Virus record (IMG/VR): IMGVR_UViG_3300027826_000003
Coordinates: 1-38,609 of that record
Direction: 5' to 3' (one strand)
Source: a virus
Length of the DNA stretch: 38,609 bases
In this document: in pieces, positions 5,562 to 38,192 of the stretch
Position numbering within the stretch: position 1 is the first letter of the stretch
Layout of the letters: every line of letters starts with the position of its first letter
Notes under the pieces: model-generated
The model's database searches: none
What the model was told of the DNA's origin: nothing
What the model saw: only the letters and a program-made list of their open reading frames with translations
Position numbers and translations under genes: made by a program

Positions 5562-5562
5562 G

Positions 5563-10710: not shown

Positions 10711-10736
10711 GCCGCGGCCGGTCGCGCAAGGGAACG

Positions 10737-10764: not shown

Positions 10765-10795
10765 GTCGGATCACTGGAGACTCAGACGATCGGCG

Positions 10796-11947: not shown

Positions 11948-11963
11948 AACTTAGCCTCCTGTC

Positions 11964-12557: not shown

Positions 12558-12614
12558 GATGCGAAATGCCCTCCCGGGCAAAACGTCGCCGCTCTCGCGG
12601 CATCCGGACGCCGA

Positions 12615-13816: not shown

Positions 13817-13825
13817 CGTTTCGCC

Positions 13826-14644: not shown

Positions 14645-14647
14645 AGT

Positions 14648-14815: not shown

Positions 14816-14821
14816 GGTGGG

Positions 14822-16856: not shown

Positions 16857-16859
16857 GAG

Positions 16860-17303: not shown

Positions 17304-17308
17304 CAGAA

Positions 17309-17560: not shown

Positions 17561-17571
17561 TGGCGTAAGTT
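17543..17571 (+). promoter_or_regulatory. Sigma-70-like promoter for the embedded plus-strand gene.
   Basis: TTGGCG (17543-17548), a 17-nt spacer, then TAAGTT (17566-17571). The strong SD AAAGGAGGG follows at 17581-17589. Confidence 0.4.
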
Positions 17572-17593
17572 GTGCGTCAGAAAGGAGGGCGTT

Positions 17594-17824
17594 ATGCCCG
17601 CTACTTGGTCTGTCGAGAATGTCGCGACCGACTCTCAGGTGCGGATCTGCTACGGCGATCTCTGCACCGAAATGCCGTACTCTCAGGCGACGAAATTCGC
17701 CCAGCGCATCCTCGGGTTCACCGGGAGCCTTCCGCCGAACGGCCGAACGGCCGGCGCGACGAGCCGAAGCATGAAGGCCGCCGGCGGGAAGAAGGGCGGG
17801 AAGCGCGGCGGTAAGGCGTGCTGA
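17594..17824 (+). CDS. Small 76-aa protein with a Lys/Gly-rich basic tail, encoded against the late operon (moron-like).
   Basis: ATG 17594 follows AAAGGAGGG by 4 nt. The product is MPATWSVENVATDSQVRICYGDLCTEMPYSQATKFAQRILGF...KAAGGKKGGKRGGKAC. GC3 is mostly G/C. It has its own promoter-like element and a downstream hairpin. Confidence 0.6.
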   Translation: MPATWSVENVATDSQVRICYGDLCTEMPYSQATKFAQRILGFTGSLPPNGRTAGATSRSMKAAGGKKGGKRGGKAC

Positions 17825-17836
17825 CAGGTGTCACCG

Positions 17837-17871
17837 CGCCGTCCGTCGCCGACCACGGGCGACGGACGGCG
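17837..17871. terminator. Perfect 14-bp hairpin between convergent genes. It has no U-tract on either strand.
   Basis: cgccgtccgtcgcc-gaccacg-ggcgacggacggcg lies between the stop at 17824 (+) and the stop at 17880 (-). Confidence 0.45.
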
Positions 17872-17879
17872 CTCGAACG

Positions 17880-18533
17880 TTAGAAGTTTTGCGCGACGGT
17901 CGCGTAGAACGTCGTCGCCGTGATCGCGCGGAGCGTGACGATATCGGCCTTTGCAGCGGTCGTCGTGAGCGTCGGTGCGCTGCCGCCGGACCACTTGATT
18001 CCGCTGAACCACGTCACGGTACGCGAGCCCGTCCCGTCCTGGACCAGCGTCAGCTCGATCTTTTGACCGGGCGTCACGTTCGCCAGCGCGAGCGTCCGGT
18101 TTCCCGCGAGCGTCACGGTGTGGCGGTTGCTGACGCTGCAATCAAACGTGATCGTCGATCCGTCGGTATCGACCACGAGCGGCTCGTACGAGCTGTTGAT
18201 CCCCAGGAGGTTCGCCGTCCCTCCTGTCGCGAGCACGACGCTTTCGGGGAATTGCAGCACGTCGCCGGCGTTCACATTCGCGTCGACGTAGCCGGCCGGG
18301 GCGGTCGAGCTGACGGTCAGCGTCTGCGCCGACCAGGCCGTCACGTTCAGCGCCGTGATGAGCGCGCCCGAGCGAAGCACGAGCGCGTTGCAAGGGAACG
18401 AGAAGTCGCCCGACGGTCCGCAGTTGACCGATACGCTGGTGCCGCCGCTCGAACGGGCGGCGGTGACGATCGGCTGGGCGTGGATCACGTCTTCGTGAAC
18501 TTGAGTTGCCAAGGTCAGGTCTCCGTGCCCCAC
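17880..18533 (-). CDS. Beta-rich virion protein (hypothetical) immediately downstream of the portal gene.
   Basis: 217-aa ORF. The GTG 18533 start overlaps the portal end. An alternative TTG at 18512 lies 7 nt after GGAGA. Confidence 0.6.
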   Translation of the reverse strand: MGHGDLTLATQVHEDVIHAQPIVTAARSSGGTSVSVNCGPSGDFSFPCNALVLRSGALITALNVTAWSAQTLTVSSTAPAGYVDANVNAGDVLQFPESVVLATGGTANLLGINSSYEPLVVDTDGSTITFDCSVSNRHTVTLAGNRTLALANVTPGQKIELTLVQDGTGSRTVTWFSGIKWSGGSAPTLTTTAAKADIVTLRAITATTFYATVAQNF

Positions 18534-20245
18534 GAGCCATAGCCTGGCGTCGCGGGGAGAATAAGGGGTGCTGCGGGAATCGGCATCTGCGGGTCGACCG
18601 CGACGGTAACACTCACGTTCGGCGCGCTATCGGCCTTCGGCGGCGCCTGGCCGCTCGGCGAGCCGGACGGGCCGGCGAGGCCCATGTCCACGTTTTCCCC
18701 GCCGTCGATCCCGAGCTTGTCGCCGTCGTCGTCAAGCTCGGTCGTCTGGTCGTCGGGCGGCGGCGGGACGACGGCGGTCGGGTCGGCCTGCAGCGCCGCG
18801 GCGATCTGCTTCCGGCGCTGGATCGCGCGATACGCTTCGATCGCTTCCTCCTCGGTCAAGCCCTGGCGGCGCATCAGGAGCTCGATCGGGTCGGTGAGGT
18901 CGTATGACAATTCGAACGTATCGGCGTTGTCGCGTTCCGGTCCGGGGAGGTCGATCGAGGGCTCGGGCCAGGCGACGCGGAGCGACGGATCGTCCGCGAA
19001 CGCGGCCAGCTCGCCGGCCAGGCCCGGCAGTCCCGCGGCGGGGCACGCCCCGATCCGGCACACGAGCTGGGCGAGCTTCGTCTCGTGCAATTCGAACAGC
19101 GGTTGCCGGCCCTTCGCGTACGTGATCAGGTCGGCGTCCTGCGCGGCGATCGACACGCCCGACGCGAGCCGCGCACCGCCGCCGCCATCGGCCGCGACGT
19201 CGATCGAGATGGGGATATCGAGCTCTTTCAAGGCCGCGTTGGCCTGGCCGCGGACGTATTCGACGATCGCCGGGATATCGAGGCTCGACTCGAGGTACTT
19301 GGCTTCGGGTAAGACCGGCGCGCCCTCCGTGTTGTCGAGCTTCGCGACCAGGGGCACGAAGCCGCCGTCGATGAAACGCGGCCGCCATTCGGGGCCGACG
19401 CCGGAGACGAATCCCAGCGGCCGGGCGTAATGGTGGACCCACAGAGCGAGGTTCGAGAGGTCGATGTTGAGCGCGCGGTTGATCTTGCTCAGGAGGCCGC
19501 CGAGGCCGTGCATATGCAAGTCGGTCGTCGGCAGCTCGTGCGTGATCATCACGAACGGGAGCACGCCGTACGGGTGCGGGCCGCTCTGGTCGGGCATGAA
19601 CCGAATCTTCGTCTGCCCATTGGTTTCGTACCCCCAGTTTTTCGAGCGGACGAAGGTGTAATAGTGCGTCCGCGTCCAGAGGCGGTACCGGATCGATTCC
19701 GGCCCGGCCTTCGTGATCGTGCAAACGGCGGTCGGTACGCGCGGCTCGTCGGGCGAGGCCCAGAACGCGAAGTCGTAGCGCGGGAAGAGATGGTAATTAA
19801 TCGGCCTGGCCGGGTTCCCGGTCGGGTAGACGCCGATCGCGCAAAGGCCGTGGAGCGTCGCGAGCCGGTCGGCGTGCTGCATCAGACCATTGAGCTGGAT
19901 ATCCTGCGCGACGCGGTTGTACCACGCGTCGACGTCGGGGCTCGCGGTGATGCGCCGCTTGCGCGGGCCGGGCTTGTAGAGATGCGACGTGAGCTTGTTG
20001 ACGGCCTGCCTGGTGATGAAGCTCACGCGTTTCGGCCGCGTCAACCACGAGAGCGCGTCCTCGGCCGGTCGGAACGCGACGTATTTTTCCGACTCGCCCT
20101 CGTACCAGTCCTTGAGCTCGCGGGCCTTGACGAGGTGGCGCTCGTGACTTGCGCAGCCGGCCTTGACGTCGGCGAGGATCGCGCGAAGCGACGGCGTCTC
20201 GTCGCCGGCGTAGGGCTCGACCGGGTTTGGTTGATAGTCCGCCAT
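18515..20245 (-). CDS. Portal protein (putative).
   Basis: 576 aa. The call rests on its position downstream of terL, its size, and an acidic then Pro-rich C-terminal tail. No family motif was verified. Confidence 0.65.
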   Translation of the reverse strand: MADYQPNPVEPYAGDETPSLRAILADVKAGCASHERHLVKARELKDWYEGESEKYVAFRPAEDALSWLTRPKRVSFITRQAVNKLTSHLYKPGPRKRRITASPDVDAWYNRVAQDIQLNGLMQHADRLATLHGLCAIGVYPTGNPARPINYHLFPRYDFAFWASPDEPRVPTAVCTITKAGPESIRYRLWTRTHYYTFVRSKNWGYETNGQTKIRFMPDQSGPHPYGVLPFVMITHELPTTDLHMHGLGGLLSKINRALNIDLSNLALWVHHYARPLGFVSGVGPEWRPRFIDGGFVPLVAKLDNTEGAPVLPEAKYLESSLDIPAIVEYVRGQANAALKELDIPISIDVAADGGGGARLASGVSIAAQDADLITYAKGRQPLFELHETKLAQLVCRIGACPAAGLPGLAGELAAFADDPSLRVAWPEPSIDLPGPERDNADTFELSYDLTDPIELLMRRQGLTEEEAIEAYRAIQRRKQIAAALQADPTAVVPPPPDDQTTELDDDGDKLGIDGGENVDMGLAGPSGSPSGQAPPKADSAPNVSVTVAVDPQMPIPAAPLILPATPGYGSWGTET

Positions 20246-20248
20246 GCC

Positions 20249-20674
20249 TTATCCGATCGCCGGAAGGTCGTATCGAGTGAGACCGTCGTACATGCGCTCG
20301 AGAGCCGCGACGCAGCGCTCGAGCGAGTGCGTCAGCACGCGGCCGAGGACGTCGCCGATCGGCCCGTTCGAGTCGAGCTGCTCGACCGCGCTCGAGTAGA
20401 GGTCGATCGGCGCGAGCACGACGTGGTAGAGCTCGTGCCGGAGGGTCCGGAGGACGTCGGCCTCGCTGTCGAACGCGTCGGGGTTGAGCACGATGTGCGC
20501 CGACTGGTAATCGACGAGCCGGCTGCACTCGCCGCGCGTGGTGTTATCGCTGTCGTCGCCGCGGCCGAGGCCGGGATCGTAGCTCACGCTCAGCTCCCAC
20601 GAGCCAAGGCCGAGCTGCCGCGAGAGGTGCGGAAGATGATCAATCACGACACGCTCGACGACCGATCGATCCAT
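20249..20674 (-). CDS. SprT-like / zincin HExxH metallopeptidase-domain protein.
   Basis: 141 aa. ..GSWELSVSY...RGECSRLVDYQSAHIVLNPDAF.SEADVLRTLRHELYHVV.. matches the SprT-like layout (W-x-v..G-x-c....I-x-L-n......L-x-HE-x-x-H). Confidence 0.5.
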   Translation of the reverse strand: MDRSVVERVVIDHLPHLSRQLGLGSWELSVSYDPGLGRGDDSDNTTRGECSRLVDYQSAHIVLNPDAFDSEADVLRTLRHELYHVVLAPIDLYSSAVEQLDSNGPIGDVLGRVLTHSLERCVAALERMYDGLTRYDLPAIG

Positions 20675-21096
20675 CAGAGACCGCCCTGGCCGGATCGGCC
20701 GCGGCTCGCGTCCGGATAGCTCGCCGGCCGCTCGCGGTAGCGGGCGACCTGGTCGCTCTCGGCGGCGCGCGCGGCGCCGTTCACGCTGTACGCGTCGCTA
20801 CAGCGCTCGATCGGGACGGCGTTCGGCCGCGGGTCGGACGGGATCGAGGCGGTGTCGATTCGGTAGGGGTCCATCGATGGCCACTCCGATTTCGTAAGAG
20901 CCGACTTCACGTCGTCGAGGTGAATGCATTCCTTCAGATTCGGGCACACGTCGCCCGAACTAATGAGCGCGAGCTTGCCGTTGCAGTAGTCGTTCCCCGG
21001 CTTCGCGTCGTAGAGGATTCCGATCACGGAACACCAGTCGTTGATCAGAGCCACCTTGTCGCCGTTCTTGGCCTCACGGCCGTTCTTGTAGTGCAC
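20674..21096 (-). CDS. Hypothetical protein whose N-terminal ~65 codons have lower GC.
   Basis: 140-aa ORF, MHYKNGREAKNGDKVALINDWCSVIGILYDAKPGNDYCNGKLA... It overlaps the downstream start by 1 nt and begins 4 nt after the terL stop. Confidence 0.6.
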   Translation of the reverse strand: MHYKNGREAKNGDKVALINDWCSVIGILYDAKPGNDYCNGKLALISSGDVCPNLKECIHLDDVKSALTKSEWPSMDPYRIDTASIPSDPRPNAVPIERCSDAYSVNGAARAAESDQVARYRERPASYPDASRGRSGQGGL

Positions 21097-21099
21097 AGC

Positions 21100-22653
21100 T
21101 CACTCCGAAAAGGTGAACGTCATCAACAGCGCGTCGAGAAGGTCGGGCGATCGGTGCAACCGAGCGGCCAGGTCCTCCTTGTTTTCGAGGACCTGCTTTA
21201 CCTGGCCCTCTTCCATCTCCATCGTCGGGGCCCGGAGCTCGCCGAGCTCCTGGCGCAGTGCCGGCCACTCCGGGTGCCCGCCGCAGTAGAACGGCACATG
21301 GCCCTCGCGGTGCGGGTCGAGCCGGGCGCGAAGCGCGAAGGCGTTCGCGGTCCGGCGATTGACGAAGAGCTTGCCCCCCTTGCCGGCGCCGAAATAGCCG
21401 ATCGCGCCGTCGAACGCTCGCGGCTGCGTCCGCTCGACCCAGCTCGCGGGCTGGTCTACGTGCTGGGCGCGGTAGGCGGTGATTCGCCGCTGGGCCTCGG
21501 CGGCCAGGTAGCTGCCGAACGATCTGCCGATCCCGGCCTTGTCGTACACGAGGTGATCGGCAGTGACGCCGAACTTGCTGGCGAGGTCGAGTACCAGAGG
21601 TTCAAGCCGGTGCTTCGCGTCGTCGAGCACGCCGTGCCACTCCGAGGCGATGAGTGCGAGCAGCCGCTTGCGATCGCGCACGACCACGACGCTACGATCA
21701 GCGCCGACGCCGCCGCCGACGTCGACGCCCATGAACGCCGGCCCGGCCGGGTATTCGCGCCAGAGGTCATCATCGAGGATCGTCTCCCGGGTGCACGCGT
21801 CGACCCAAGCGGAGGGAATGAACCGGACCGTCTCGGCGCCGGGGAACTGGCCGAGGATGTTCGACTTCCACCACGGCGATTCCTCGCCGTGAATCGTCCT
21901 CATCTGATGCAAAAACGACCGCGAGACGGCGCCGATCGGCGAGTAGTCGAGCTGCGCGTGCGGGTGATCGAGACAGGAGATCGGGACGGTGTTGATCGCG
22001 TCCGCGCCCTTCGCGGCGATGTCGTGGAGCTCGCGAAAGTGGCAGTCGTACCGGATCGGGTTGCCGCACACGACGAGCCGCGTCGCCGCGAGTCCGTGGA
22101 TCGCGGTCCAGATATCGGCGTGCACGCCCGAGGCCTCGTCGACGATCACGAGCAGCTCGCCGGCGTGCTGGCCCGAAAACCCTTCGCTCGACTGCGCCGC
22201 GAAGCCCAGCGCTCCCCAGTCGCCTTTCGACCGGACCGTGAGCCGCTGGGGTGACGAGTAGCCTTGCGTCAAGTGGTCGTAACCAAGTCGGGCACGGCTC
22301 GCACGGATCGCCCGCCGGATCTCTTTCCAGAGGACGCTAACAACCTGGCGGTGATCGGGGCCCGTCGTGATGACGAGCGAGTTGGGCCGCGTGTAGAGCC
22401 ACCAGAGGACGACCCCGGCGAGCAAGTAGCTCTTGCCGACCGCCCGGCCCGCGGGGACGACGGTCGTCGGGTACCGAACGATCGAGTCGCAGACGGCGGC
22501 CTGCTTATTCCAGAGGCGCCGGCCGAGGATCCTCTCCTGAAACTCGACCGGTCTCCACTTCAGGTGCTCGAGGACCTTCCGGGCCGGCGGCTCCGTCGGC
22601 TTCGGCGCCGGCTTCGGCTTCGATTTCGGCGAGCAGCTCGGGCCAGGCGTCAC
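21100..22653 (-). CDS. terL: Terminase large subunit.
   Basis: Walker A is VVPAGRAVGKS and Walker B is ELLVIVDEAS. The C-terminal nuclease-like region reads FMGVDVGGGVGADRSVVVV. The track start (GTG 22653) overlaps terS by 149 nt, so the true start is uncertain. Confidence 0.9.
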   Translation of the reverse strand: MTPGPSCSPKSKPKPAPKPTEPPARKVLEHLKWRPVEFQERILGRRLWNKQAAVCDSIVRYPTTVVPAGRAVGKSYLLAGVVLWWLYTRPNSLVITTGPDHRQVVSVLWKEIRRAIRASRARLGYDHLTQGYSSPQRLTVRSKGDWGALGFAAQSSEGFSGQHAGELLVIVDEASGVHADIWTAIHGLAATRLVVCGNPIRYDCHFRELHDIAAKGADAINTVPISCLDHPHAQLDYSPIGAVSRSFLHQMRTIHGEESPWWKSNILGQFPGAETVRFIPSAWVDACTRETILDDDLWREYPAGPAFMGVDVGGGVGADRSVVVVRDRKRLLALIASEWHGVLDDAKHRLEPLVLDLASKFGVTADHLVYDKAGIGRSFGSYLAAEAQRRITAYRAQHVDQPASWVERTQPRAFDGAIGYFGAGKGGKLFVNRRTANAFALRARLDPHREGHVPFYCGGHPEWPALRQELGELRAPTMEMEEGQVKQVLENKEDLAARLHRSPDLLDALLMTFTFSE

Positions 22654-23005
22654 GCGCTTCGGGCTCCGTCGGTTTTTCGGGTCGATCGAGGCCGAGCAAT
22701 TTGCGTTCGTCCGCCATCGCGCCGCGGATCTCTTTCAGCAAGCGAGCGTCGGCGCCGTCCTCTTGCAGCTCCCAGGCGCCGGCGAGCTGGTCGATGATCC
22801 ACTCCAGCCGGGCGAGCTGCCGCCCGCGAGCGGCCGCGGTGCGGCGGGCGAGACGGTCCAGGGTCCGCTCATTAACGCGCGCCAGCGCTCGGCTAACCGA
22901 GCTCTGATGGACGCCCAGTTGCTCGGCAATTCGAAGCTGCGTCCAGCAACGGGCCTGAAGCCGGACGGCCTCGGCGAGCTGCTCGGGTGTGAGGTGCGCG
23001 GCCAC
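22505..23005 (-). CDS. terS: Terminase small subunit (HTH).
   Basis: 166 aa with a GTG start after AGGGAGG. The N-terminal HTH is WTQLRIAEQLGVHQSSVSRALARV, followed by an acidic C-terminal half. It lies directly upstream of terL. Confidence 0.65.
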   Translation of the reverse strand: MAAHLTPEQLAEAVRLQARCWTQLRIAEQLGVHQSSVSRALARVNERTLDRLARRTAAARGRQLARLEWIIDQLAGAWELQEDGADARLLKEIRGAMADERKLLGLDRPEKPTEPEARDAWPELLAEIEAEAGAEADGAAGPEGPRAPEVETGRVSGEDPRPAPLE

Positions 23006-23038
23006 ACTGGTTTCGCCTCCCTTGCGCCGGTCGATCGA

Positions 23039-23305
23039 TCAATTCTGCCCGTCGAGCTTCGGCATGCGCAAGGTCGAGCAGCAACCGAGCCGGGCCCGGT
23101 GTTCGGCCTCGGCGTGGCGGCGCTGCTGCGCACCGCGGGCCCATGCGTTCGCCGCTCCGATCAACGATCCGAGGCCGGCGAGGATCGCCGGCACGAGCTC
23201 CCACCGCGGCCCGTAGCGCGCGACCTGGTCCAAAACCCAGAACCCGGCGACCGCCGCGTTCGCGCCGAAAATCGCGCCGTCGTGGTGATGGGAGAGGTGT
23301 ACCAT
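23039..23305 (-). CDS. Holin-like membrane protein with two TM segments and a basic C-terminus.
   Basis: 88 aa. The hydrophobic segments are AIFGANAAVAGFWVL and LVPAILAGLGSLIGAANAW, followed by RGAQQRRHAEAEHRAR... Confidence 0.55.
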   Translation of the reverse strand: MVHLSHHHDGAIFGANAAVAGFWVLDQVARYGPRWELVPAILAGLGSLIGAANAWARGAQQRRHAEAEHRARLGCCSTLRMPKLDGQN

Positions 23306-23316
23306 CGTCGCTCAGA

Positions 23317-23481
23317 TCACTTCGCCGGCGGCCCGCTGTTCGCCGCTTGCCCGATCCCGAACGCAGCCGCGAACGCGGTCGACGCGCCGACCAGATCGCC
23401 CGTCGTGAGGTGGTAGATCGCGAGGCCGACCAGGCCGACCGACGCGAGGTAGGATCCGATTGTGGCGGGGGAGAGGATCAC
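23317..23481 (-). CDS. Small 54-aa membrane protein (holin/antiholin-like), not listed as its own ORF.
   Basis: GTG 23481 lies in a GTGA overlap with the metzincin stop. The product is VILSPATIGSYLASVGLVGLAIYHLTTGDLVGASTAFAAAFGIGQAANSGPPAK. This is the only protein-like part of the otherwise Arg-rich 374-aa track ORF. Confidence 0.5.
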   Translation of the reverse strand: MILSPATIGSYLASVGLVGLAIYHLTTGDLVGASTAFAAAFGIGQAANSGPPAK

Positions 23482-24101
23482 GAGATTCTCCGGACAAAGA
23501 CCTGGTAATCTCCCGGCGACGCGAAATCGAGCTCGAGCCCGATCGGCCCCGGTGTGAGGACGTGAAGCGTGGTTGCCGGCGCGTCGACCGGCGGTGCGGC
23601 GGGCGGGTATCGGAGCTGGGCCTGCTCGACGTCCCATTGCTGCGGGCCGACCAGGTCCGGGTTGTAGATCGGCGCCATCACCGCGACGACGGCGGCCGGC
23701 GAGTGCTCGAGGCCGAGCGCGTGCCCGAACTCGTGCATCGCGACCTGCGCCAGCTCCTCGTCGGTCCACTGGTCGTCGAGGTTCAGGCGCAGGAGCAATT
23801 GCGGCTCGCCGGCCGGGAGATCCGTGAGGCCGAGCTCGACGCCGCTCGGGTCGAGCGCGGTGAACACCGCGACGACCTTCGCCGCGGTCGGGTCCTCGGT
23901 CGATTCGATCGCGACTCCGCAGACGGCCGACCACACGGCGATGCCGGCGCCGATGGCGCCCGCGGCGGTGTCGCGGGTCATCCCGGCCGGAAGGGGAGAG
24001 GTCGGCGCGAGGCACCACGTCACGACGGTTCCCGGCGGCCAGGCGTAGAGCCGGGCCGAGTCGGCGAGCGCGGGCCGCGCACAGCGGGCGCTTGGACGCA
24101 T
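23478..24101 (-). CDS. Matrixin-type metzincin zinc metalloprotease (peptidase M10-like catalytic domain only).
   Basis: HEFGHALGLEH (HExxHxxGxxH) is followed by a Met-turn, VMAPIY. Upstream matrixin-like segments are VTWCLAP, AIGAGIAVWSAV and LNLDDQWTDEE. ATG 24101 lies 8 nt after AGGAG. Confidence 0.85.
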   Translation of the reverse strand: MRPSARCARPALADSARLYAWPPGTVVTWCLAPTSPLPAGMTRDTAAGAIGAGIAVWSAVCGVAIESTEDPTAAKVVAVFTALDPSGVELGLTDLPAGEPQLLLRLNLDDQWTDEELAQVAMHEFGHALGLEHSPAAVVAVMAPIYNPDLVGPQQWDVEQAQLRYPPAAPPVDAPATTLHVLTPGPIGLELDFASPGDYQVFVRRIS

Positions 24102-24104
24102 CAA

Positions 24105-24635
24105 TCAGGCTCCTGCTCGTGCTCGGGTCGATCGGACGCTCTCGAACGCGCGGGCGAGTCGATCGCGCACGCAGCTCCGCGAGAAGCCGACCGACTTCGC
24201 GAGCGCGGTGAGCGTGTCGTGCTCGAGAAAGAGGTAGATCAATGCCCGGCTTGTCGGGGGGAACTGGTCGATGAGCGCGTGGATCTTCCGCCCGTCCTCG
24301 TCCTCGTCGTAACAGCTCGGGTCGACGAGATAGAGCTGGTGATCGCGCGTGATCGGCGTCTCGTGCTCGCGGCGCCTCTGTTCGCGGCGGTACTCGGTCC
24401 GCAGCGCATAGATGATCCGCAGCGTCGCATACGTGCCCCACGATGCCCCGCGATTAGCGCGATAGTCCTGTGCCGCGCGGCAGAGCTCGAGGTACGCGAC
24501 GCACCGGTAATCGTCGGCGAGCCCGCGGTGCGCGCGGCCGAACGGTCGCGCGAGCGAATTCGCGAGCGGCACGTACCGGTCGGCCAGCGCGCGCTCGGCG
24601 GCCGTCATCTCTCGGGTCGGTTTTGCGGGGGGCAT
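24105..24635 (-). CDS. Sigma-70 family factor with regions 2 and 4 only (ECF-like).
   Basis: Region 2 is ADDYRCVAYLELCRAAQDYRANRGASWGTYATLRIIYALRTEYRRE. The region 4 HTH is PPTSRALIYLFLEHDTLTALAKSVGFSRSCVRDRLARAFESV. 176 aa. Confidence 0.8.
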   Translation of the reverse strand: MPPAKPTREMTAAERALADRYVPLANSLARPFGRAHRGLADDYRCVAYLELCRAAQDYRANRGASWGTYATLRIIYALRTEYRREQRRREHETPITRDHQLYLVDPSCYDEDEDGRKIHALIDQFPPTSRALIYLFLEHDTLTALAKSVGFSRSCVRDRLARAFESVRSTRARAGA

Positions 24636-24705
24636 CGATTACCCCTGGCCTGGGTGCGTCGCGAGGTGTGCTTCCAATAGGTACTATCGAAAAAGTCGCC
24701 GGGTC

Positions 24706-24744
24706 GAGAAAACCGGCGGCCCGTCGGCGTCGACGGGCCGCCGG
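24706..24744 (-). terminator. Rho-independent terminator downstream of the membrane-protein operon and upstream of the sigma gene.
   Basis: On the minus strand, CCGGCGGCCCGTCG-ACGC-CGACGGGCCGCCGG forms a perfect 14-bp stem and is followed by TTTTCTC. It starts 13 nt after the stop at 24758. Confidence 0.75.
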
Positions 24745-24757
24745 CCCGGTGCCAAAC

Positions 24758-24946
24758 TCAGAAGAGCCGAAGCGGCTCCCAGAACCCCCCCCACCAGAGA
24801 ATCGAGGCCTCTATGGCGGTCCCTATCAGCAAACGAAAGAGCGAATAAAAGCCGGGCTCCGTTTGAGGCATAGGCCTGCCATCCCTCGCAAGCTCGGCGC
24901 CGAGGTTCAGCGCCATCAGGGCGAGCATGATGCACTGAGGTGCCAT
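24758..24946 (-). CDS. Small 62-aa membrane protein with two hydrophobic segments.
   Basis: ATG 24946. The product is MAPQCIMLALMALNLGAELARDGRPMPQTEPGFYSLFRLLIGTAIEASILWWGGFWEPLRLF. This is the protein-like tail of an otherwise Arg-rich track ORF. Confidence 0.5.
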   Translation of the reverse strand: MAPQCIMLALMALNLGAELARDGRPMPQTEPGFYSLFRLLIGTAIEASILWWGGFWEPLRLF

Positions 24947-24975
24947 CGGTCGACGCTCCGGGGGCGAAAAGAAGA

Positions 24976-25578
24976 TCAGCGCCGGAAGAGCAGGCTCCGG
25001 ATCCCCGAGGCCGGGGCCTGCGGACTCGCCATCACCGGTTGTGGGGCCGGTGCTGGCGGTGCTTGCACTTGATAGACGACGACGGCCTGGGGCGTCGGCT
25101 TCGACGCCGGCGGTACGACGACGTGGTCGTACCCGACCCGGGCCAGTCGATCGCCGAGTGCGCCGATCGCGCGGCGCATCGGGCCAGCCGGCCGCAGCTC
25201 GGCCGCAACGGGGGCCGGTGCCGGCGCCGGCGGGGCAGTGGTCGCGCTGGCCCCGCTCGTCGTGACGTGGAGCTGGATCGTCTGGGGCGGCGCCGGCGCG
25301 GCCGGTGGTACGGCGATGTGGATCACGGCCGAGGTCGGCGCCGCGGGGGTTGTCGGCGGCGCCAGCTCGGCCTCGTGCGGTTGCTGGATCGGTCGGAGGT
25401 CGTATTGCTGGACCGGGCCGACGTAGGGACTCGCTTTGACCGCGGCTTGCGGCGACGGTTTCGGAGGCGGCGGGCCGACGCCGCCGTCGTCGGCGCGCAC
25501 GACCAGGCTCAGGACCGCGACCAGCGCGGCCCCCGCGATGAGCCAGAGGAGACCACGACTCCACCGCAAAGACGTCAT
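24976..25578 (-). CDS. N-terminally anchored proline-rich membrane or exported protein.
   Basis: ATG 25578. The N-terminus MTSLRWSRGLLWLIAGAALVAVLSLVV acts as a signal-anchor. The rest is about 170 aa of Pro/Ala-rich sequence (PPPPKPSPQAAV.., APPAPAPAPVAAE.., APPAPAPQPV..). Confidence 0.6.
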   Translation of the reverse strand: MTSLRWSRGLLWLIAGAALVAVLSLVVRADDGGVGPPPPKPSPQAAVKASPYVGPVQQYDLRPIQQPHEAELAPPTTPAAPTSAVIHIAVPPAAPAPPQTIQLHVTTSGASATTAPPAPAPAPVAAELRPAGPMRRAIGALGDRLARVGYDHVVVPPASKPTPQAVVVYQVQAPPAPAPQPVMASPQAPASGIRSLLFRR

Positions 25579-25638
25579 ATCCCCACCCCCTATCGAGCTC
25601 GGCGTACAGCAGCGCAACGCCAAACCCTACCACACCTT

Positions 25639-25664
25639 TTATCGGCCGGCGGGGCATCTCCCCC
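25639..25664 (+). repeat. Intergenic motif copy 1, TTATCGGCCGGCGGGGCATCTCCCC.
   Basis: It shares TTATCGGCCGG plus GGGG..TCTCCCC with 26052..26071, and TTATCGGCCGGC with 31544..31555. All three copies are intergenic and on the same strand. Confidence 0.8.
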
Positions 25665-26051
25665 CTACCCTTTTCCTAACCGGCCGGGCGGGGCCGGCAG
25701 ACGGGGTTTTGTCCTCGGGTCGGGCTCCCCCTTCGGTCTGGGTAAAAAGGGCAGGGGGTGTACGCCCGTCCGTCACGATCGACCGCGCATGAATAAGCCC
25801 GGCCGGGGGTCAGAGTCCCCGTACCGGGCCGTGAGAGCTGACTACGTGCACGCGCGTCGCCGATGGTACCGAGCTGCCGCCGATCGGTCGAGTCGAGTCG
25901 AGCCGGCCGAACTCGGCCGCGTCGGGTCGCGCCGTGAGCGCCTGAACTATGCGATTTATGCGTTTCGCCACCGCGCTCGCGCCGCGCGCACGGGAAGGCC
26001 CCGGAACGGCAACGAGCCGGGCCGGGGCCTCGAGGGTGTCTCGCCAAAGTG

Positions 26052-26078
26052 TTATCGGCCGGGGTCTCCCCTGCCGAT
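26052..26078 (-). terminator. Motif copy 2, which is also a terminator-like hairpin abutting the stop of the XRE gene.
   Basis: TTATCGGCCGGGGTCTCCCCTGCCGAT folds with ATCGGC/GCCGAT and GGGG/CCCC stems. The minus-strand tail AACACTTTGG is a weak U-tract. Confidence 0.4.
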
Positions 26079-26305
26079 CAATCGAGGTCGCTCCACTGGC
26101 GGCCGAGCGCGGCGAGCACGCGAGCGACGGTCTCGATCGAGGGATTGCGACGGATGCCGAGCAACACCTGCGAGAGCTGCGAGCGGCTCATGCCGGCCTC
26201 GGCCGCGATCGCGGCGACCGAGCGGCCGTCGTGCTCGACCAGGTCGCGGAGCTGGTCGAGCGCGTCGGGGGCGTGGGGGGCGGATTTGGTGCTGCGGGTG
26301 GGCAT
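26078..26305 (-). CDS. XRE/Cro-CI family HTH regulator, a candidate prophage repressor.
   Basis: 75 aa. ..SVAAIAAEAGMSRSQLSQVLLGIRRNPSIETVARVLAALG.. is a typical HTH_3 domain. Confidence 0.85.
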   Translation of the reverse strand: MPTRSTKSAPHAPDALDQLRDLVEHDGRSVAAIAAEAGMSRSQLSQVLLGIRRNPSIETVARVLAALGRQWSDLD

Positions 26306-26316
26306 GCTTCGCGTCC

Positions 26317-26790
26317 TCAGTTAGAGCGGCGGGCCGCCTCGGCCGCCGCCTCGACGACCGACGGGTGATCGAGGTAATGATCGGGCGCGCGCCGCAGCGT
26401 CGGCCAATCCACGACCCACATGCCAAGGACCTCGCTCACACGCTCGCCGACCGGCCGCCTCGACCAGTCAGCAAGGGTACGCTCGTCGGCGTCGCGGGCC
26501 TGCGCGTCAGAGACCGCCAGGGAGGCGGCCTGCCACCGCTGATACAGCGGCTCGCGCTCTCCCTGGTTTTCCCCGCGGCCAGTGCCGGCAAACACTCCCG
26601 CCGTGACGACCTCGACGGCTGGCACGCCCCTGACAATATCGCCCGTGCCATAGGGCGTGTCGTCGCCGTCAACGAGCAGCACGGGCACACCGTAGCCGCT
26701 AGCCGGGTGATCCGTCGTAAGCCGCCCGCCGCTCCAGGTCAGAGTTGCCATCGTCGTCTCTCCATCTCGTCCGTCGTCCTGCGAGCCCAT
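26317..26790 (-). CDS. Hypothetical protein co-transcribed with the XRE regulator.
   Basis: 157-aa ORF with its ATG about 18 nt downstream of a near-consensus promoter. An alternative start is MATLTWSG at 26752. Confidence 0.6.
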   Translation of the reverse strand: MGSQDDGRDGETTMATLTWSGGRLTTDHPASGYGVPVLLVDGDDTPYGTGDIVRGVPAVEVVTAGVFAGTGRGENQGEREPLYQRWQAASLAVSDAQARDADERTLADWSRRPVGERVSEVLGMWVVDWPTLRRAPDHYLDHPSVVEAAAEAARRSN

Positions 26791-26807
26791 TGCCCGCCTC
26801 TGAAATA

Positions 26808-26849
26808 AGTATAGCGATCGCTAACGCAGTGTCAAGCGATCGATAACGC
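26808..26849 (-). promoter_or_regulatory. Near-consensus sigma-70 promoter with a duplicated operator-like motif.
   Basis: On the minus strand: TTGACA (26835..26830), a 16-nt spacer, then TATACT (26813..26808). The perfect palindrome TAGCGATCGCTA lies in the spacer. The direct repeat AGCGATCG(C/A)TAACGC occurs at 26813..26827 and 26835..26849. Confidence 0.55.
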
Positions 26850-26871
26850 GACTGGCGCGATTTTTTGACGA

Positions 26872-27465
26872 TCAGTTGGCCGCCCCCTCGAGCGCCCGGC
26901 ACGCTTCCGCGTGCCCGTTCGCGATTTCGCTTTCGGTCCAATCGACGAACAGGGCCGGAAGCTCGTTGATTTTGGCCCATCCGTTGATATACCGGACGAG
27001 CCCCTCCGCGCCCCTTTCCTCTTCCTGGCTCTTGAGCCACGCGAAGAATGCCTTGCCGCTCCGCGGCACGCCGCGGTCGCCGCCGCCGCGGCGATCACCG
27101 CCCCGACCGCCGCCGCTCCCCTGCTGCCGCGGCCCCGCCGTCTCCCACGTCAACCGGGCCTTGCCGCCGTGTCCGTTCGACCCGTTCGCGTTCGACGCCG
27201 CCGCCGGCCGGCGATCGGGCTCCGCGGCCGGCGCGGGCTGCACCGGCTCGTCGTCCTGCTGCTGCGGAGCGCGCATCCGTTCGAGCTCGAGGTTGACGGC
27301 CGTCTCGCACTCCGAGTAGGCGCCCCGAAGCGCCTCGCGAAACCGGTCGACGTCGTCGACCAGGAGCGATGAATCGAGCTCGAGCTCGAGCTCGAGCGAA
27401 GCCTGGATGCTGCTGTAGTTCGGTTGTCCGACCGTTCGCCGGACGCCGACGCGTGCCTTGATCAT
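26872..27465 (-). CDS. Hypothetical early protein with a central RGG/Gly-Arg-rich disordered segment.
   Basis: 197-aa ORF with GGAG 8 nt upstream. The central segment is ..QQGSGGGRGGDRRGGGDRG.., flanked by two folded-looking domains. Confidence 0.6.
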   Translation of the reverse strand: MIKARVGVRRTVGQPNYSSIQASLELELELDSSLLVDDVDRFREALRGAYSECETAVNLELERMRAPQQQDDEPVQPAPAAEPDRRPAAASNANGSNGHGGKARLTWETAGPRQQGSGGGRGGDRRGGGDRGVPRSGKAFFAWLKSQEEERGAEGLVRYINGWAKINELPALFVDWTESEIANGHAEACRALEGAAN

Positions 27466-27480
27466 GGCCGTTGCTCCGAT

Positions 27481-27702
27481 TCAGATTCCGTCGTCGATTG
27501 AGGATTGAGGGTCGTCGAGTCGAGTCGAGTCGTCGGGACGGCCCCGGCCGTGGAACCGCTCGCGCAGCTCGGCCGGGGTCGTGCAGTCGATGCAGATCGA
27601 GCGGCGTGCGATCTCCTCGCGGCGGCGGGATCGCTGAATGTACGCGAGCCCGAACCATCCGAGAGAGCAGCCGCACCGCTTGCAGATGAGCTTGATCGCC
27701 AT
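27481..27702 (-). CDS. Small zinc-finger (CxxC...CxxC) protein.
   Basis: 73 aa. The pattern is MAIKLICKRCGCSLG...SICIDCTTPAE. Confidence 0.6.
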   Translation of the reverse strand: MAIKLICKRCGCSLGWFGLAYIQRSRRREEIARRSICIDCTTPAELRERFHGRGRPDDSTRLDDPQSSIDDGI

Positions 27703-27736
27703 GTTGTCTCAGGCTCCCAAGTGTCCTATCACGATT

Positions 27737-28051
27737 CTACGCGCGCGACGAGTCGAACCCGTCGAGGACCTCGTCGGCGAACAGATCGAGCCGGTCGTGG
27801 AGCTCGTGCAGCTCGGCGTCCGCCGCCGCGAGCTGGGTCCGTGCGCGGACCAGCTCGAGGTAGAGCCGGCCGTACGCCGACGACCAGGCCCCGACGAGGT
27901 AGGGATACTTCGGGTCCTCGGCGGCGGGCGAGGCGGCCCACAGCTCGGCGCGGTAGCGCTCGAGCGAGCGCTCGATCGACGCCTGGACGGCGGCGGGGTC
28001 GAGCGGGTCGGATGGCTTGATCGCGGGCTCGATCGTCTGTAGAGTCGTCAT
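27737..28051 (-). CDS. First gene of the leftward early operon (hypothetical, helical).
   Basis: 104-aa ORF. ATG 28051 is preceded by GGAGCACAATGCA. Confidence 0.6.
   Translation of the reverse strand: MTTLQTIEPAIKPSDPLDPAAVQASIERSLERYRAELWAASPAAEDPKYPYLVGAWSSAYGRLYLELVRARTQLAAADAELHELHDRLDLFADEVLDGFDSSRA
28017..28045 (+). promoter_or_regulatory. Candidate promoter of an antisense small RNA.
   Basis: TTGATC (28017-28022), a 17-nt spacer, then TAGAGT (28040-28045). It lies inside the 5' end of the minus-strand gene 27737..28051. Confidence 0.35.
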
Positions 28052-28108
28052 TGCATTGTGCTCCGTTTGGTGCCCCGTCGGCCGGTTCAGCGGCCGGCGG
28101 GGTTTTTT
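28051..28108 (+). ncRNA. Candidate ~58-nt cis-antisense sRNA with a ~20-nt single-stranded 5' region and an intrinsic terminator.
   Basis: The terminator is ccccgtcggccg-gttcag-cggccggcgggg (12 bp including one G-U pair, 28073..28102) followed by TTTTTT (28103..28108). No plus-strand gene lies upstream to terminate. The 5' part, ttgcattgtgctccgtttggtg, is complementary to the SD and start region of 27737..28051. Confidence 0.4.
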
Positions 28109-28144: not shown

Positions 28145-28172
28145 ATCATACGTTGTACGTACAGAGTGTCAA
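28145..28172 (-). promoter_or_regulatory. Leftward early promoter (PL-like) with a palindromic operator in the spacer.
   Basis: On the minus strand: TTGACA (28172..28167), a 16-nt spacer, then TATGAT (28150..28145). The perfect palindrome TGTACGTACA (28154..28163) lies in the spacer. Confidence 0.55.
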
Positions 28173-28303: not shown

Positions 28304-28516
28304 ATGGACGGTACGGCGGTGGGACTGATGGCGAATCCGAAAAAGGCGCGGGCTCTCGCTGACAAGACGGTCGCGTTTCGCGTGTCGAGGGCCTATTCCA
28401 AATGGCTCGACGAGCTCGCGAAACGCAACCGGACGTCCATCTCCGCGCTGCTCGACCAGGCGTTGACCGAGTATGCGAAGTCGATCGGCTTCGAAAAGGA
28501 GGCGCCGGAGCGGTGA
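28304..28516 (+). CDS. Ribbon-helix-helix (Arc/CopG-like) regulator, Cro-like by position.
   Basis: ..KTVAFRVSRAYSKWLDELAKRNRTSISALLDQALTEYAK.. shows the beta-strand plus two helices of an RHH fold. ATG 28304 follows GGAGGA. An alternative ATG at 28328 exists. The track ORF (28058) extends implausibly far upstream through the promoters. Confidence 0.7.
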   Translation: MDGTAVGLMANPKKARALADKTVAFRVSRAYSKWLDELAKRNRTSISALLDQALTEYAKSIGFEKEAPER

Positions 28517-28605: not shown

Positions 28606-28609
28606 CCGA

Positions 28610-35636: not shown

Positions 35637-38192
35637 TCACTCGCCGTCGTCTTCCCCGCCCATCTCGCCGCCGAGCTGACGCCGGCCGGCGGTGGGTCCC
35701 TCGCTCGGCGCGCCGAAGCCGAGGCCGAACGCGGCGGCCGGCGCCGACGAGAACACCGCCGGCGCCTCCGCGATCCCGAACGGCTGCCCCACGATCGACG
35801 GCCGCTGCAGCGCCGCGCCGCTGAACGGTGCCCGACGGTTCGAGAACGTCAGCGTCGTCACGTACGACGTCGCGCCCGACCGCTCGCGGTACTCGAGGTC
35901 GACCGCGATCACCGGCACGTCGAACGAGTCCCATCCGGTGCTATACGTGCTGCCGGTGATCGAAAGTTTGTGCCCGATCAGGAGCGACGACGCGAGGAGC
36001 CCAAAGTAAGGGATCGAGCCCTCGTACACGACGTCCTTGACCGAGTCCAAAAACTCGGCCGCGAACGTGGTCATATTCGTGGCGTTCGACCCGTCCCGCC
36101 AGTCGTTGCAGGAAATCACCTTGGTGCGTTGAATCCCGAGCGCGCTGTACGACGTGCCGGCGTAGCCGCTCGACGGCTGCACGACACTGAGCGCGCCCGT
36201 GTGGACCGGCACGAACGCCTGAAAGTCATTCACCGGCGCCGGCGTCACGCCATCGACCGAGAAGACGAGCGCCGTCGGCCGGGCCGTGAGCACCGTCCCG
36301 CTCTCCGGGTCGACCGCGACGCCGATGTAGCTCTGCTGATAGGGTGCCATACCGAGCGGCGAATAAAACACCGTCCCCGCCGGCGTGCTCGTGAGCGTCG
36401 CCGCGGTGCCGTCCGAGTTCCGGAACGCGACCGGGTACGGGAAATAGTTCGCAAGCTGCGCCGCGATCGCGGCGTTCGTCACCTTGTACCGTCGGTAGAC
36501 GTAGCTCGCGCCGCCGGCGGTGCCATAGATTTGATACGACGTGTAAGAGGTCGTCGGCGCCGGCGTGTCGAGCGTGAGCGTCGACGTCCCGCCGGCCGAG
36601 AGCGCCGTGTTCGACACGATCCGCGCGGTGAAATACTGCGTGTAGGCGCTGATCGCGTCCTGACGGAGCACGATCACGCCCTGGTGCCCAGTCGGCGAGT
36701 AATCCCAGTAGTCGGAGACCCACTGGGCCTTGGTGTTTTGCGACTGCACCGTGACCTGCGTCGTCGACGGCATCGTCGTGATGGTGCCGAGGTCCGACTG
36801 GCCGACCGCCGGGCCCGTGAGCGTCACGGTCGGCGAGCTGCTGTAGCTCGAGCCGCCGGCCGTGACCGTGATGCCCGTCACGGCCCCGCCGGAGATCGTC
36901 GCCGTCGCCGTCGCGCCGGAGCCTGTCGCGTCCGTGATCTGCACCGTCGGCGCGGCGGTGTAATTGTAGCCGCTGATAATGACGGCGATCGATGCGATCG
37001 AGCCGCTCGAGACCGTGGCCTGCGCCGTCGCCGTGCCCTGGCTCTGGGTCGGCGTGGTGAAGTCGCTGGCCTGCCACTGGGATTTGGCCTGCGCGTTGGT
37101 GAGGCCGTCGTGGGCGAAGTCCTCCGAGAGCCCTCCGTCGGCGTCGCCGGAGCCCGGCCACGGCTTGAGCGAGAGCGTCACGGGCACGACCAGGTCGTGC
37201 CCCCGGATCTCACACCGCGAGTAACAGCTCGACCAGTCGGCCGTCACGCTCGGCCGCCCGACGCGCGGGTCTGATCCGTCCATCGTCAGCGTGATATCGG
37301 CCGACCAGGTCCGCGGGTCGTGAAACCGGATGTTCCCCTGCGGGTCGACCTGGACGAAGTGGTTCGGGTGGCACGATTGCACGACGCCCTCGAGCGACTG
37401 CAAGATCCGCTCGCCCTGGACGTCGATTTCAAACGGCGGAATTATCGTGAGCGCCGCGAGGTCCGTGAGCGTCGCGCTCGGCAGCGTCGAGAGGATCACG
37501 ATCGGGGCCGTCGTGTACCCGGAGCCGCCGGAGCCGAGCGTGATTCCCGTCACGGCGCCGCCGCTGACGGTCGCGGTCGCGGTCGCGCCCGATCCCCCGC
37601 CTCCGGCCAGGAGCACCGTCGGAGCGACCGCATAAGACGAGCCGCCGGCGACGATGGTAAACGAGCTCTGGACGACGCCGCCGGAGATCGTGCACGTCGC
37701 CTCGGCGCCGGTGCCGGCGCTCGAGTAATTGCCGATCCCGACGGCCGAGAGCGCGACCTTGTTCTGGCTCATCTCGAGCACGTCGGCGACGATCTGCCCC
37801 ATCGTCCGGCCGGCGCGACTCGCGATGAAGTCCGGGTCGTCCGATGCGACATTGAAGCGGGCGGTGTCCGTGAGCGTGTTCGAGTCCGTCATCGGGATGT
37901 ACTCGGCCCGCTTCGCGAGGCCGTAGCACGTCCACTCCCGGACCCACCCCAGGTGATCGTCATAGTGCGTCAGGTGCGAGCCCGTGTCGCCGCTGAAGAT
38001 CAGCGTACCGTCCTGCGTGAGCGTCACGGGCTGCGCGTCCCACGGGTCGGGGCCCGACGTCAGCGCGCCGATCGACCGCGCGAACGACAACATCGGGTAG
38101 CCGTCCTTGGCATACGGCCGGCACGTCAGGAGCGTCGTCCGGGTCGCGACGCGGTCGATCGTGGTCGAGTTGATGACGAGGACGGCGCTCAA
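35637..38192 (-). CDS. 851-aa distal tail / baseplate-hub-like protein carrying four copies of the shared repeat module.
   Basis: The TTG start lies in a TTGA overlap with the tape-measure-like stop. The repeat modules are at 37491..37715 and 36813..37025. It is the last gene of the late operon. Confidence 0.75.
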   Translation of the reverse strand: MSAVLVINSTTIDRVATRTTLLTCRPYAKDGYPMLSFARSIGALTSGPDPWDAQPVTLTQDGTLIFSGDTGSHLTHYDDHLGWVREWTCYGLAKRAEYIPMTDSNTLTDTARFNVASDDPDFIASRAGRTMGQIVADVLEMSQNKVALSAVGIGNYSSAGTGAEATCTISGGVVQSSFTIVAGGSSYAVAPTVLLAGGGGSGATATATVSGGAVTGITLGSGGSGYTTAPIVILSTLPSATLTDLAALTIIPPFEIDVQGERILQSLEGVVQSCHPNHFVQVDPQGNIRFHDPRTWSADITLTMDGSDPRVGRPSVTADWSSCYSRCEIRGHDLVVPVTLSLKPWPGSGDADGGLSEDFAHDGLTNAQAKSQWQASDFTTPTQSQGTATAQATVSSGSIASIAVIISGYNYTAAPTVQITDATGSGATATATISGGAVTGITVTAGGSSYSSSPTVTLTGPAVGQSDLGTITTMPSTTQVTVQSQNTKAQWVSDYWDYSPTGHQGVIVLRQDAISAYTQYFTARIVSNTALSAGGTSTLTLDTPAPTTSYTSYQIYGTAGGASYVYRRYKVTNAAIAAQLANYFPYPVAFRNSDGTAATLTSTPAGTVFYSPLGMAPYQQSYIGVAVDPESGTVLTARPTALVFSVDGVTPAPVNDFQAFVPVHTGALSVVQPSSGYAGTSYSALGIQRTKVISCNDWRDGSNATNMTTFAAEFLDSVKDVVYEGSIPYFGLLASSLLIGHKLSITGSTYSTGWDSFDVPVIAVDLEYRERSGATSYVTTLTFSNRRAPFSGAALQRPSIVGQPFGIAEAPAVFSSAPAAAFGLGFGAPSEGPTAGRRQLGGEMGGEDDGE

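Follow-up and report, generated by a model that had tools for sequence, protein, structure and literature searches.

A predicted cis-antisense RNA over the ribosome-binding site of the first leftward gene of a temperate soil phage

Genes and control sites around the hairpin

We analysed virus record IMGVR_UViG_3300027826_000003 of IMG/VR over its whole length of 38,609 nucleotides, which is called the window here, and this report concerns a hairpin with a promoter-like element at 28017-28108 that is predicted to give a small RNA antisense to the beginning of gp104, which heads the leftward operon. The assembly of the window is circular, bases 1-127 being identical to 38483-38609, so that the genome is 38,482 bp long; its G+C content is 68%, and the same sequence was assembled three times independently from one soil sample (38.5-38.6 kb each). 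Genes for the large terminase, the portal, the major head protein and the tail tube are present, an integrase gene and a tRNA-Arg are carried as well, and the phage is described as temperate and tailed. When the strands were compared by G+C content at third codon positions (GC3), all confident genes in 1..28051 and 35637..38533 were on the minus strand and those in 28304..~35247 were on the plus strand, and the hairpin lies in the divergent control region between the two blocks. An earlier note on this DNA had stated that there is no plus-strand gene within 3 kb upstream of the hairpin, which is an understatement since every confident gene from 1 to 28051 points leftward. The leftward operon begins with gp104 and continues with a zinc-ribbon protein, other early proteins, a helix-turn-helix (HTH) protein and a sigma factor before the structural genes are reached, and on the rightward side a 70-aa ribbon-helix-helix (RHH) protein is followed by a replication-initiator-like protein and then by the integrase. 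A blastn search with 26000-30300 of the window gave no match among GenBank phages, and a tblastn search with the large terminase (TerL) gave no match exceeding 32% identity.

The gene gp104 (27737..28051, minus strand) was called in three assemblies, has a GC3 of 0.94 and codes for a 104-aa helical protein that had no match in Pfam, PHROG, NCBIfam or the PDB sequences. A homologue search among 5.8 billion proteins found only gp104 itself. The AlphaFold2 (AF2) model is a two-helix hairpin with a predicted local distance difference test score (pLDDT) of 73, and no match to this model was found in the PDB by Foldseek. Members of the gp104 family were found through translated neighbours in three of the related loci described below (L007, L010 and L029), and the consensus of this small alignment is DPMSP...GAYRV.Y.RL. 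A two-codon upstream open reading frame, AUG-CAA-UGA (28048-28056, minus strand), overlaps the start of gp104 (AUGA) but is not conserved in L007, and it is probably incidental.

The leftward operon is preceded by a strong promoter, TTGACA-16-TATGAT (28145..28172, minus strand), which matches the consensus at 11 of 12 positions and bears out the P_L-like promoter of the earlier note. This promoter is conserved in L007, L009, L010 and L029 together with a palindrome, TGTACGTACA or AGTACGTACA, in its spacer. In the window the palindrome is TGTACGTACA at 28155..28164, which reads the same on both strands, and it is a candidate operator of the RHH protein. This Arc/CopG-like protein (28304..28516, plus strand) is encoded divergently from gp104, 196 nt from the terminator described below, and it is presumed to be a repressor; it matched the Arc-like repressor family of PHROG with E = 3.6e-5 and RHH_1 of Pfam with E = 1.1e-3, which is below the family cut-off. 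Rightward promoter-like sites were seen at 28202-28230 and 28247-28275. Sites containing GTAC occur not only in the palindrome but also at 28180, 28213 and 28239, and a 19-nt inverted repeat (28145-28163 and 28212-28230) joins the -10 region of the leftward promoter to that of the first rightward one; this candidate operator set (28145-28280) is also conserved in L007, L009, L010 and L029.

The terminator hairpin and the predicted RNA

The hairpin at 28073..28102 on the plus strand has a 12-bp stem with 11 Watson-Crick pairs and one U·G pair and a 6-nt loop, GUUCAG. Its arms are 28073-28084 and 28091-28102, the wobble pair is T28078·G28097, the loop (GTTCAG in the DNA) is at 28085-28090, and G28072·T28103 is an optional 13th pair. 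A T6 tract (28103..28108) that would form the U-tail of an intrinsic terminator lies directly 3' of the stem, and in the first 10 nt beyond the stem there are 7 T on the plus side and 0 on the minus side. In a simple terminator scan 28073-28108 ranked first, with 13 pairs of which 11 were G-C, and it was the sole long-stem match across the entire window. An energy-based census found three T-tailed hairpins that are comparable or stronger (29972-29932, 24745-24712 and 25830-25796), all of them on the minus strand, and the hairpin at 28073-28108 is the strongest terminator-like hairpin found on the plus strand of the genome. Its folding energy is -29.9 kcal/mol on the plus strand and -23.0 on the minus strand, where it is weaker because the U·G pair becomes a C·A mismatch. 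A G/C-rich stem-loop, with a stem of at least about 5-8 bp and a loop of 3-8 nt, followed by a U tract on the transcribed strand is what characterizes intrinsic terminators, and 28073-28108 is therefore predicted to act as one on the plus strand, in agreement with the textbook terminator (12-bp stem, 6-nt loop, T6) that had been described there.

The promoter-like element that had been proposed upstream of the hairpin, TTGATC-17-TAGAGT, is present at 28017-28045 and is referred to here as P_as. Its -35-like hexamer TTGATC (28017..28022, plus strand) lies in codons 10-12 of gp104 and its -10-like hexamer TAGAGT (28040..28045, plus strand) is the reverse complement of codons 3-4 (ACT CTA); the spacer is 17 nt, and 3 nt separate the -10 from the complement of the gp104 ATG (28049-28051). 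P_as faces the P_L-like promoter and the start sites assigned to the two are about 86 bp apart. It matches the consensus at 8 of 12 positions, which is under the scan threshold of 9, and no other plus-strand site reaches 8/12 over the 1,070 nt that precede the hairpin. A 16-nt zone taken at random from these genomes attains such a score with a probability of P = 0.0125, and the promoter match is therefore weak evidence by itself.

With the transcription start site placed about 7 nt past the -10, at ~28051-28053, the predicted RNA would extend over 28052-28108 and have a length of about 57 nt. When this RNA was folded, its first 20 nt or so (the single-stranded 5' tail, 28052..28072, plus strand) were essentially open and were followed by the hairpin, with a minimum free energy of -31.2 kcal/mol and z = -3.67 compared to shuffled sequences, which agrees with the unstructured 5' segment of about 20 nt and terminator hairpin of the earlier note. 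The Shine-Dalgarno sequence of gp104, GGAG (28064-28061, minus strand), lies within the predicted RNA and the start codon abuts its predicted 5' end, so that the 5' segment is indeed complementary to the leader and Shine-Dalgarno region of gp104. In the folded sense leader, which also forms a 5'-terminal hairpin, the Shine-Dalgarno sequence is unpaired.

Recurrence of the element in related loci

Relatives were located through homologues of the adjacent RHH protein and through one match to the operator pattern, and their contigs were inspected. Conservation of the hairpin and promoter in relatives had been named as a check on the prediction, and its outcome supported the prediction, with 16 elements of the same design being found in 12 related loci, on both operons. 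The design they share is an antisense promoter-like element over the first codons, 20-48 nt over the Shine-Dalgarno sequence, a hairpin of 11-15 bp with a covarying stem and a tail that is T-rich on the antisense strand alone. We regard these comparative data, which come from sequence, as the decisive evidence for the predicted element.

The three loci L007, L009 and L029 have the operator and promoter of the window and a gp104-family gene in first place, with the element in the same arrangement and orientation. The element of L007 reads TTGCTG-17-TACAGT-3 nt-CAT and is followed by a 12-bp hairpin whose stem sequence is entirely different and by the tail TTTTTCTTT; that of L009 is TTGATC-17-TACGAT-3 nt-CAC with a 12-bp hairpin and TTTTTT, and that of L029 is TTGATG-17-TAGAGT-3 nt-CAT with a 12-13-bp hairpin and the tail ATTTTCAT. 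In L008 and L013, a more distant pair, TTGGCG-16-TAGACT-4 nt-CAT precedes hairpins of about 13-14 pairs with T-rich tails; the stem sequences of the two differ from each other, and the -35 of L008 runs past the contig end.

L010 also has the operator and promoter of the window, but its first leftward gene codes for a zinc-ribbon protein and is preceded by a leader of about 33 nt without a hairpin. The gp104-family gene is second there, and its product is 45% identical to that of L007 (E = 1.5e-13) and weakly similar to gp104. The gene order is thus swapped, being zinc-ribbon and then gp104-family in L010 (640-1233) and gp104 and then zinc-ribbon in the window (27481-28051), and the element, TGGACG-17-TAGACT-3 nt-CAT with a 12-bp hairpin, stands before the gp104-family gene. 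The antisense element therefore travels with the gp104-family gene and not with the promoter.

The same design was found ahead of the second leftward gene in L012, L016, L020, L022 and L030. In L012 elements at 1136-1200 and 4124-4201 precede the replication-initiator-like genes 176-1135 and 4202-5404, in L016 an element at 4437-4519 precedes an AAA_25 primase/helicase-like gene (4520-6091), and in L022 an element at 1758-1830 precedes the gene 945-1757 (270 aa). The elements on replication-initiator-like genes echo the control of plasmid copy number by countertranscripts. The terminator is canonical in the window, L007, L009, L020, at 1160 of L012 and at 4476 of L016, and it is weaker at the other elements.

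When viral contigs were scanned with gp104, gp197, gp350 and the RHH alignment nothing was found. Scans of metagenome and genome contigs with the RHH alignment and the operator pattern ATACNNTGTACGTACANNGTGTCAA also found nothing, and this pattern was too strict because it missed the AGTACGTACA variant of L009 and L010. Among the TerL relatives, the contig of L004 stops just before the control region and L005 has a different early region with no hairpin there.

The promoter-like sequence was found to recur with the hairpin. At all nine evaluable elements of the first set the score in the 16-nt zone at the start codon was 7-9/12, where the background P(>=7) is 0.039, and the geometry was identical (17-nt spacer and 3 nt to the start-codon complement) in six of these nine and later in L029 and L030 too. 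As controls 75 other gene starts of these loci were scored, and the elements had the higher scores (Mann-Whitney p = 2e-5). Four of the 75 control starts scored at least 8/12 and all four carry the same hairpin and T tail in the leader; two of them belong to replication-initiator-like proteins and one to an AAA_25 primase/helicase-like protein. At the homologous -10 positions L029 has TAGAGT, L007 TACAGT, L009 TACGAT and L010 TAGACT, each 3 nt before the start-codon complement, and a TTG at the equal 17-nt spacing is present in L007 (TTGCTG), L009 (TTGATC) and L029 (TTGATG).

The codons from which the -10 is made are rare, ACT being 2.2% of the Thr codons and CTA 1.4% of the Leu codons of the phage. 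In the relatives codons 3-4 are ACT CTA in L029, ACT GTA in L007 and AGT CTA in L010, and L029 reuses the rare ACT CTA although the two proteins are only about 35% identical over the 48 residues aligned. When the codons of the window were resampled synonymously the observed promoter score was attained in 0.28% of trials (P = 0.0028), and over nine loci the combined probability by Fisher's method was 5e-6. These observations suggest that the antisense promoter at the start of gp104 is probably real.

The functional strand

Strand asymmetry was measured on the 14 elements found first. Counted over the 10 nt directly past the stem, T made up 85 of 140 positions on the antisense side and 33 of 140 on the sense side, against a background of 17%, and the antisense count was the higher in 14/14 elements (Wilcoxon 5e-4), the means being 6.1 and 2.4. 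Across the 14 hairpins there were 10 G·U pairs on the antisense strand, whereas no position was G·U on the sense strand only. Of the two folds, that of the antisense strand was the more stable in 12 of the first 14 elements to be scored and in 13 of 16 when L029 and L030 were added. In the orthologous stems of the window, L009 and L007, 4-7 of the 12 stacked positions were changed on both sides and 0-1 on one side. These paired changes were counted by a Python script since the hairpins were out of structural register in the MAFFT alignment; terminator hairpins of this generic kind do not form one homologous family. Taken together, the T tails, the G·U asymmetry, the stability and the paired changes indicate that the selected structure is that of an antisense-strand RNA, the 3' side of which resembles an intrinsic terminator. 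YUNR motifs were seen in the loops inspected by eye, and as their chance expectation is too high they were not counted as evidence.

Interpretation

The explanation that we favour, with a probability of about 0.62, is that the plus strand gives a cis-antisense countertranscript of ~55-58 nt, made up of the 5' tail and the terminator hairpin, over the ribosome-binding site of gp104. Countertranscripts over a translation-initiation region are an already known, classical kind of control, and the steps that would follow synthesis of the RNA are modelled here on established antisense systems. Transcription would begin at P_as, a weak sigma-70-type promoter embedded in the first 12 codons of gp104, beside the complement of the start codon, and would stop at the intrinsic terminator 28073-28108. 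On the gp104 mRNA the Shine-Dalgarno sequence and the spacer would be perfectly paired by the open tail of about 20 nt, and the antisense terminator hairpin, being complementary to a stem-loop in the mRNA leader, would have its pairing partner there. Such pairing would block the loading of ribosomes on gp104, and the duplex would probably expose the gp104 mRNA to double-strand-specific cleavage. There would then be two layers of control, in which the RHH repressor sets leftward transcription and the antisense RNA mops up leaky transcripts. Once the strong leftward promoter fires, its transcripts would out-titrate the antisense RNA, and convergent transcription from about 86 bp away would probably interfere with the weak antisense promoter.

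Several points speak against such a countertranscript. The element is known here from the DNA sequence of a metagenome alone. P_as, at 8/12, is far weaker than the phage's own 11/12 promoters and the consensus used may not be that of the host, and in some relatives the first -10 position is G rather than T (GAGACT, GATAAT). The T tracts are poor or interrupted in several relatives (ACCTCTTTGC, ACTCTCATTC), and since the loci are related their elements do not count as fully independent cases. N-terminal codons are less GC-rich in general, with a GC3 of 0.75 at codons 2-6 of the control genes, and the null model of codon usage was therefore somewhat too strict. Finally, the hairpin that forms on the sense strand is stable too (-23 kcal/mol) and might serve some function there.

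This last point leads to the least improbable of the rival explanations, which we nevertheless consider unlikely, namely that the stem-loop serves the leftward mRNA as an RNase III site, a stabiliser, a translational operator or a U-less terminator or attenuator and that the antisense features are by-products. The stem-loop lies 20-48 nt upstream of the start codons and always within the sense transcript, where its fold is still strong and is accompanied in the window by the 5'-terminal hairpin of the leader, and the operon-internal hairpins begin 7-12 nt after the upstream stop codon, all of which would suit a sense-strand function. Such a function, however, leaves the promoter-like element and the rare codons unexplained and gives the A-rich run 5' of the hairpin no known role, and no T tract follows the stem on the sense strand (0 T in 10 nt in the window, and a mean of 2.4 compared to 6.1), where the 10 of 10 wobble pairs that favour the antisense strand turn into mismatches. 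A role of the hairpin in the mRNA would also be compatible with a countertranscript because it would pair with the antisense hairpin. The earlier note had set its antisense RNA against a hairpin acting only as a 5' stabiliser of the leftward mRNA, and the element of L010, which precedes the second gene of its operon, argues against a stabiliser; as main explanations both a 5' stabiliser and an insulating terminator are ruled out by the operon-internal elements of L010 and other loci. That the hairpin and T6 do no more than stop non-specific antisense transcription before it enters the control region and the RHH gene, and that there is no dedicated small RNA, is a somewhat less plausible idea. 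It draws on the firmly established antisense-strand orientation and on the terminator being far better supported than the promoter, but elements also occur inside operons (L010, L012, L016, L020, L022, L030) where there is no control region to shield, the promoter-like element made of rare codons stands at a fixed distance in every case, and it would have been simpler to lose a spurious promoter than to evolve a terminator for it.

A function at the level of DNA, with the G/C-rich inverted repeat being a protein-binding site or a cruciform used in replication, packaging or recombination, would fit a repeat that is a perfect DNA palindrome but for one position and that lies near the control region. 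The stem sequences, however, vary between loci and within one genome while pairing is kept, which is a signature of RNA structure, and neither the G·U asymmetry nor the one-sided T tail has any meaning for duplex DNA, so that we hold this explanation to be very improbable. Least credible of all is that the hairpin, the T run and the weak promoter match are functionless products of chance in a genome with 68% G+C; when the size of the search space is allowed for, the promoter match by itself loses its significance, but the z of the hairpin is -3.67, covarying versions of it are present in 12 loci, and chance is excluded by the statistics taken together.

If the countertranscript is real, the lytic switch of this phage would be two-layered, with the RHH repressor acting on a near-consensus promoter and the countertranscript acting on the ribosome-binding site of the first gene. 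The combination of an RHH repressor with a countertranscript is known from small plasmids (CopG/RNAII) and from the immI side-module of P22, and it is so far undescribed for the main early/lytic operon of a tailed phage, at whose head it would stand here. What adds to the interest is that the same antisense cap, consisting of a promoter-like element within the first codons of a gene and a reverse-oriented terminator in its leader, is seen on several early genes in different members of a group of uncultivated phages, and the gp104 family, which consists of small helical proteins without known relatives, would be flagged as having a tightly controlled early function. A wider proposal, about which we are doubtful, is that this group of high-G+C soil phages uses the cap as a portable, general device that was placed independently on several unrelated early genes, as a multi-target cis-antisense network that would span both operons and take in the gp104 family, replication-initiator-like genes and the primase/helicase-like gene, with the element of the window as one instance of it. 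Were this true, such a network would be one so far undescribed for any phage group, and in combination with the RHH repressor the cap would add a layer of immunity or threshold control made of RNA, which might set heteroimmunity as c4 does in P1/P7. The comparative set of 16 elements, several of them on replication genes, also suggests a rule by which phage genomes from metagenomes can be searched without transcriptomes, namely that a start codon should have a terminator in reverse orientation 20-50 nt upstream of it and, made from rare codons 3-4 of the gene, an antisense TAnnnT.

Other features of the genome

Two conventional sense-strand terminator-like hairpins, at 24712-24745 and 25796-25830 (minus strand; -35.4 and -25.8 kcal/mol), lie within the leftward operon. 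The former is just upstream of the phage sigma-factor gene (24105-24635), and this suggests a boundary between early and middle genes. A second near-consensus promoter, TTGACA-16-TATACT (26808-26835, minus strand; 11/12), also lies within this operon and precedes gp157 and the HTH gene (26078-26305). At 23478-24635 (minus strand), upstream of the packaging genes, the sigma factor, which is ECF-like (extracytoplasmic function) with regions 2 and 4, adjoins an M10 (matrixin-type) metallopeptidase, and the two make an unusual pair of neighbours. Degenerate tandem repeats with a period of 33 nt and at least 7 copies occupy 15028-15278 within the leftward gene 14822-15658.

Inside the 3' end of the replication-initiator-like gene (28984-30036, plus strand) there is another element on the minus strand (29925-30039), with a promoter-like TTATCA-17-TATGAT (30039-30011), a hairpin (29972-29932, -31.7 kcal/mol) and T7. 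Either transcription of the tRNA gene is terminated here or the element encodes a second RNA, of about 80 nt, antisense to the 3' end of a gene as OOP is to cII. The tRNA-Arg(ACG) lies on the minus strand within 30088-30197 and adjoins the integrase gene (30265-31227), and directly upstream of it a 35-nt hairpin, GGATAACC...GGTTATCC (30163-30197), consists of copies of segments of the tRNA anticodon arm, so that 30088-30197 is a candidate attP region. Further rightward, a sense-oriented hairpin followed by CTTTTT (32646-32675, plus strand) is intergenic and lies ahead of a large gene ending at 34814, for the start of which the pipelines disagree (32703 or 32916), and this hairpin may be an attenuator.

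Comparison with known systems

When the window was searched with Rfam only the tRNA reached the gathering threshold, and in a permissive search the best matches, Spot_42 with 17.4 bits (threshold 80) and PtaRNA1 with 14.9 bits (threshold 47), were at chance level. A type I toxin-antitoxin system was considered and rejected; gp104, with 104 aa and a predicted soluble two-helix hairpin, is not a small hydrophobic toxin, which usually has <60 aa, and the other capped genes encode proteins of 127-523 aa that include Rep-like and AAA_25 proteins.

IS10 RNA-OUT, with its target RNA-IN, is a classical antisense regulator of a mobile element. Together with lambda OOP and paQ and with c4 of P1/P7, it resembles the element described here in being a classical antisense regulator of a mobile element that acts on the 5' region or ribosome-binding site of a gene. 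OOP differs, however, in that its pairing partner is the 3' end of cII, and c4 in that it arises by processing of a transcript of the same sense and works in trans; RNA-OUT is a stem-loop RNA of greater length, and none of the four shares sequence with the element of the window. Among phages OOP, PaQ, sar and c4 are listed as antisense regulators (PMC5415839, PMC12197685), and sar of P22 is a small antisense RNA that controls ant, a gene that is also under the RHH repressors Arc and Mnt (PMC2629481, PMC5415839). The closest phage analogue of the predicted RNA is sar, since the placement matches and RHH repressors are encoded in the same region. As Liao et al. and Wu et al. are said to have reported in 1987, sar starts at the beginning of its target gene, runs back over the ribosome-binding site and ends at a terminator. 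Unlike in P22, the presumed target here heads the main leftward operon towards the structural genes whereas ant belongs to a side 'moron', gp104 has no similarity to Ant, no Rfam family matches and the host is not enterobacterial. Thus, the parallel that the earlier note had drawn with the small antisense RNAs of lambdoid and P22-like phages holds by design but not by homology, and the closest structural analogue is found outside the phages.

This analogue is RNAII of plasmid pMV158, a proven RNA that inhibits translation of repB together with the RHH repressor CopG; in it a single-stranded 5' tail of 17 nt leads into a single G/C hairpin, which has a loop of 6 nt and is the intrinsic terminator, and a U tail follows (PMC4485353). 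The build of the predicted RNA, with a tail of about 20 nt, a 12-bp stem, a 6-nt loop and U6, is near-identical, each of the two is a countertranscript of the stretch that directly precedes a gene start and is partnered by an RHH repressor in a dual control, and relatives of this phage carry the element on replication-initiator-like genes. The two are not related by sequence or in Rfam, and the setting here is a tailed temperate phage and not a rolling-circle plasmid, in a genome high in G+C, with a longer stem and known from sequence alone. Membership of the pMV158 type would fail on the identity of the target, which in pMV158 is the replication initiator whereas gp104 has no similarity to Rep, and on the operon layout, as the RHH gene is co-transcribed with the target in pMV158 and divergent from the target operon here. 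It is therefore with both pMV158 RNAII and P22 sar that the element is best compared, as one that would work like these systems but is not homologous to them.

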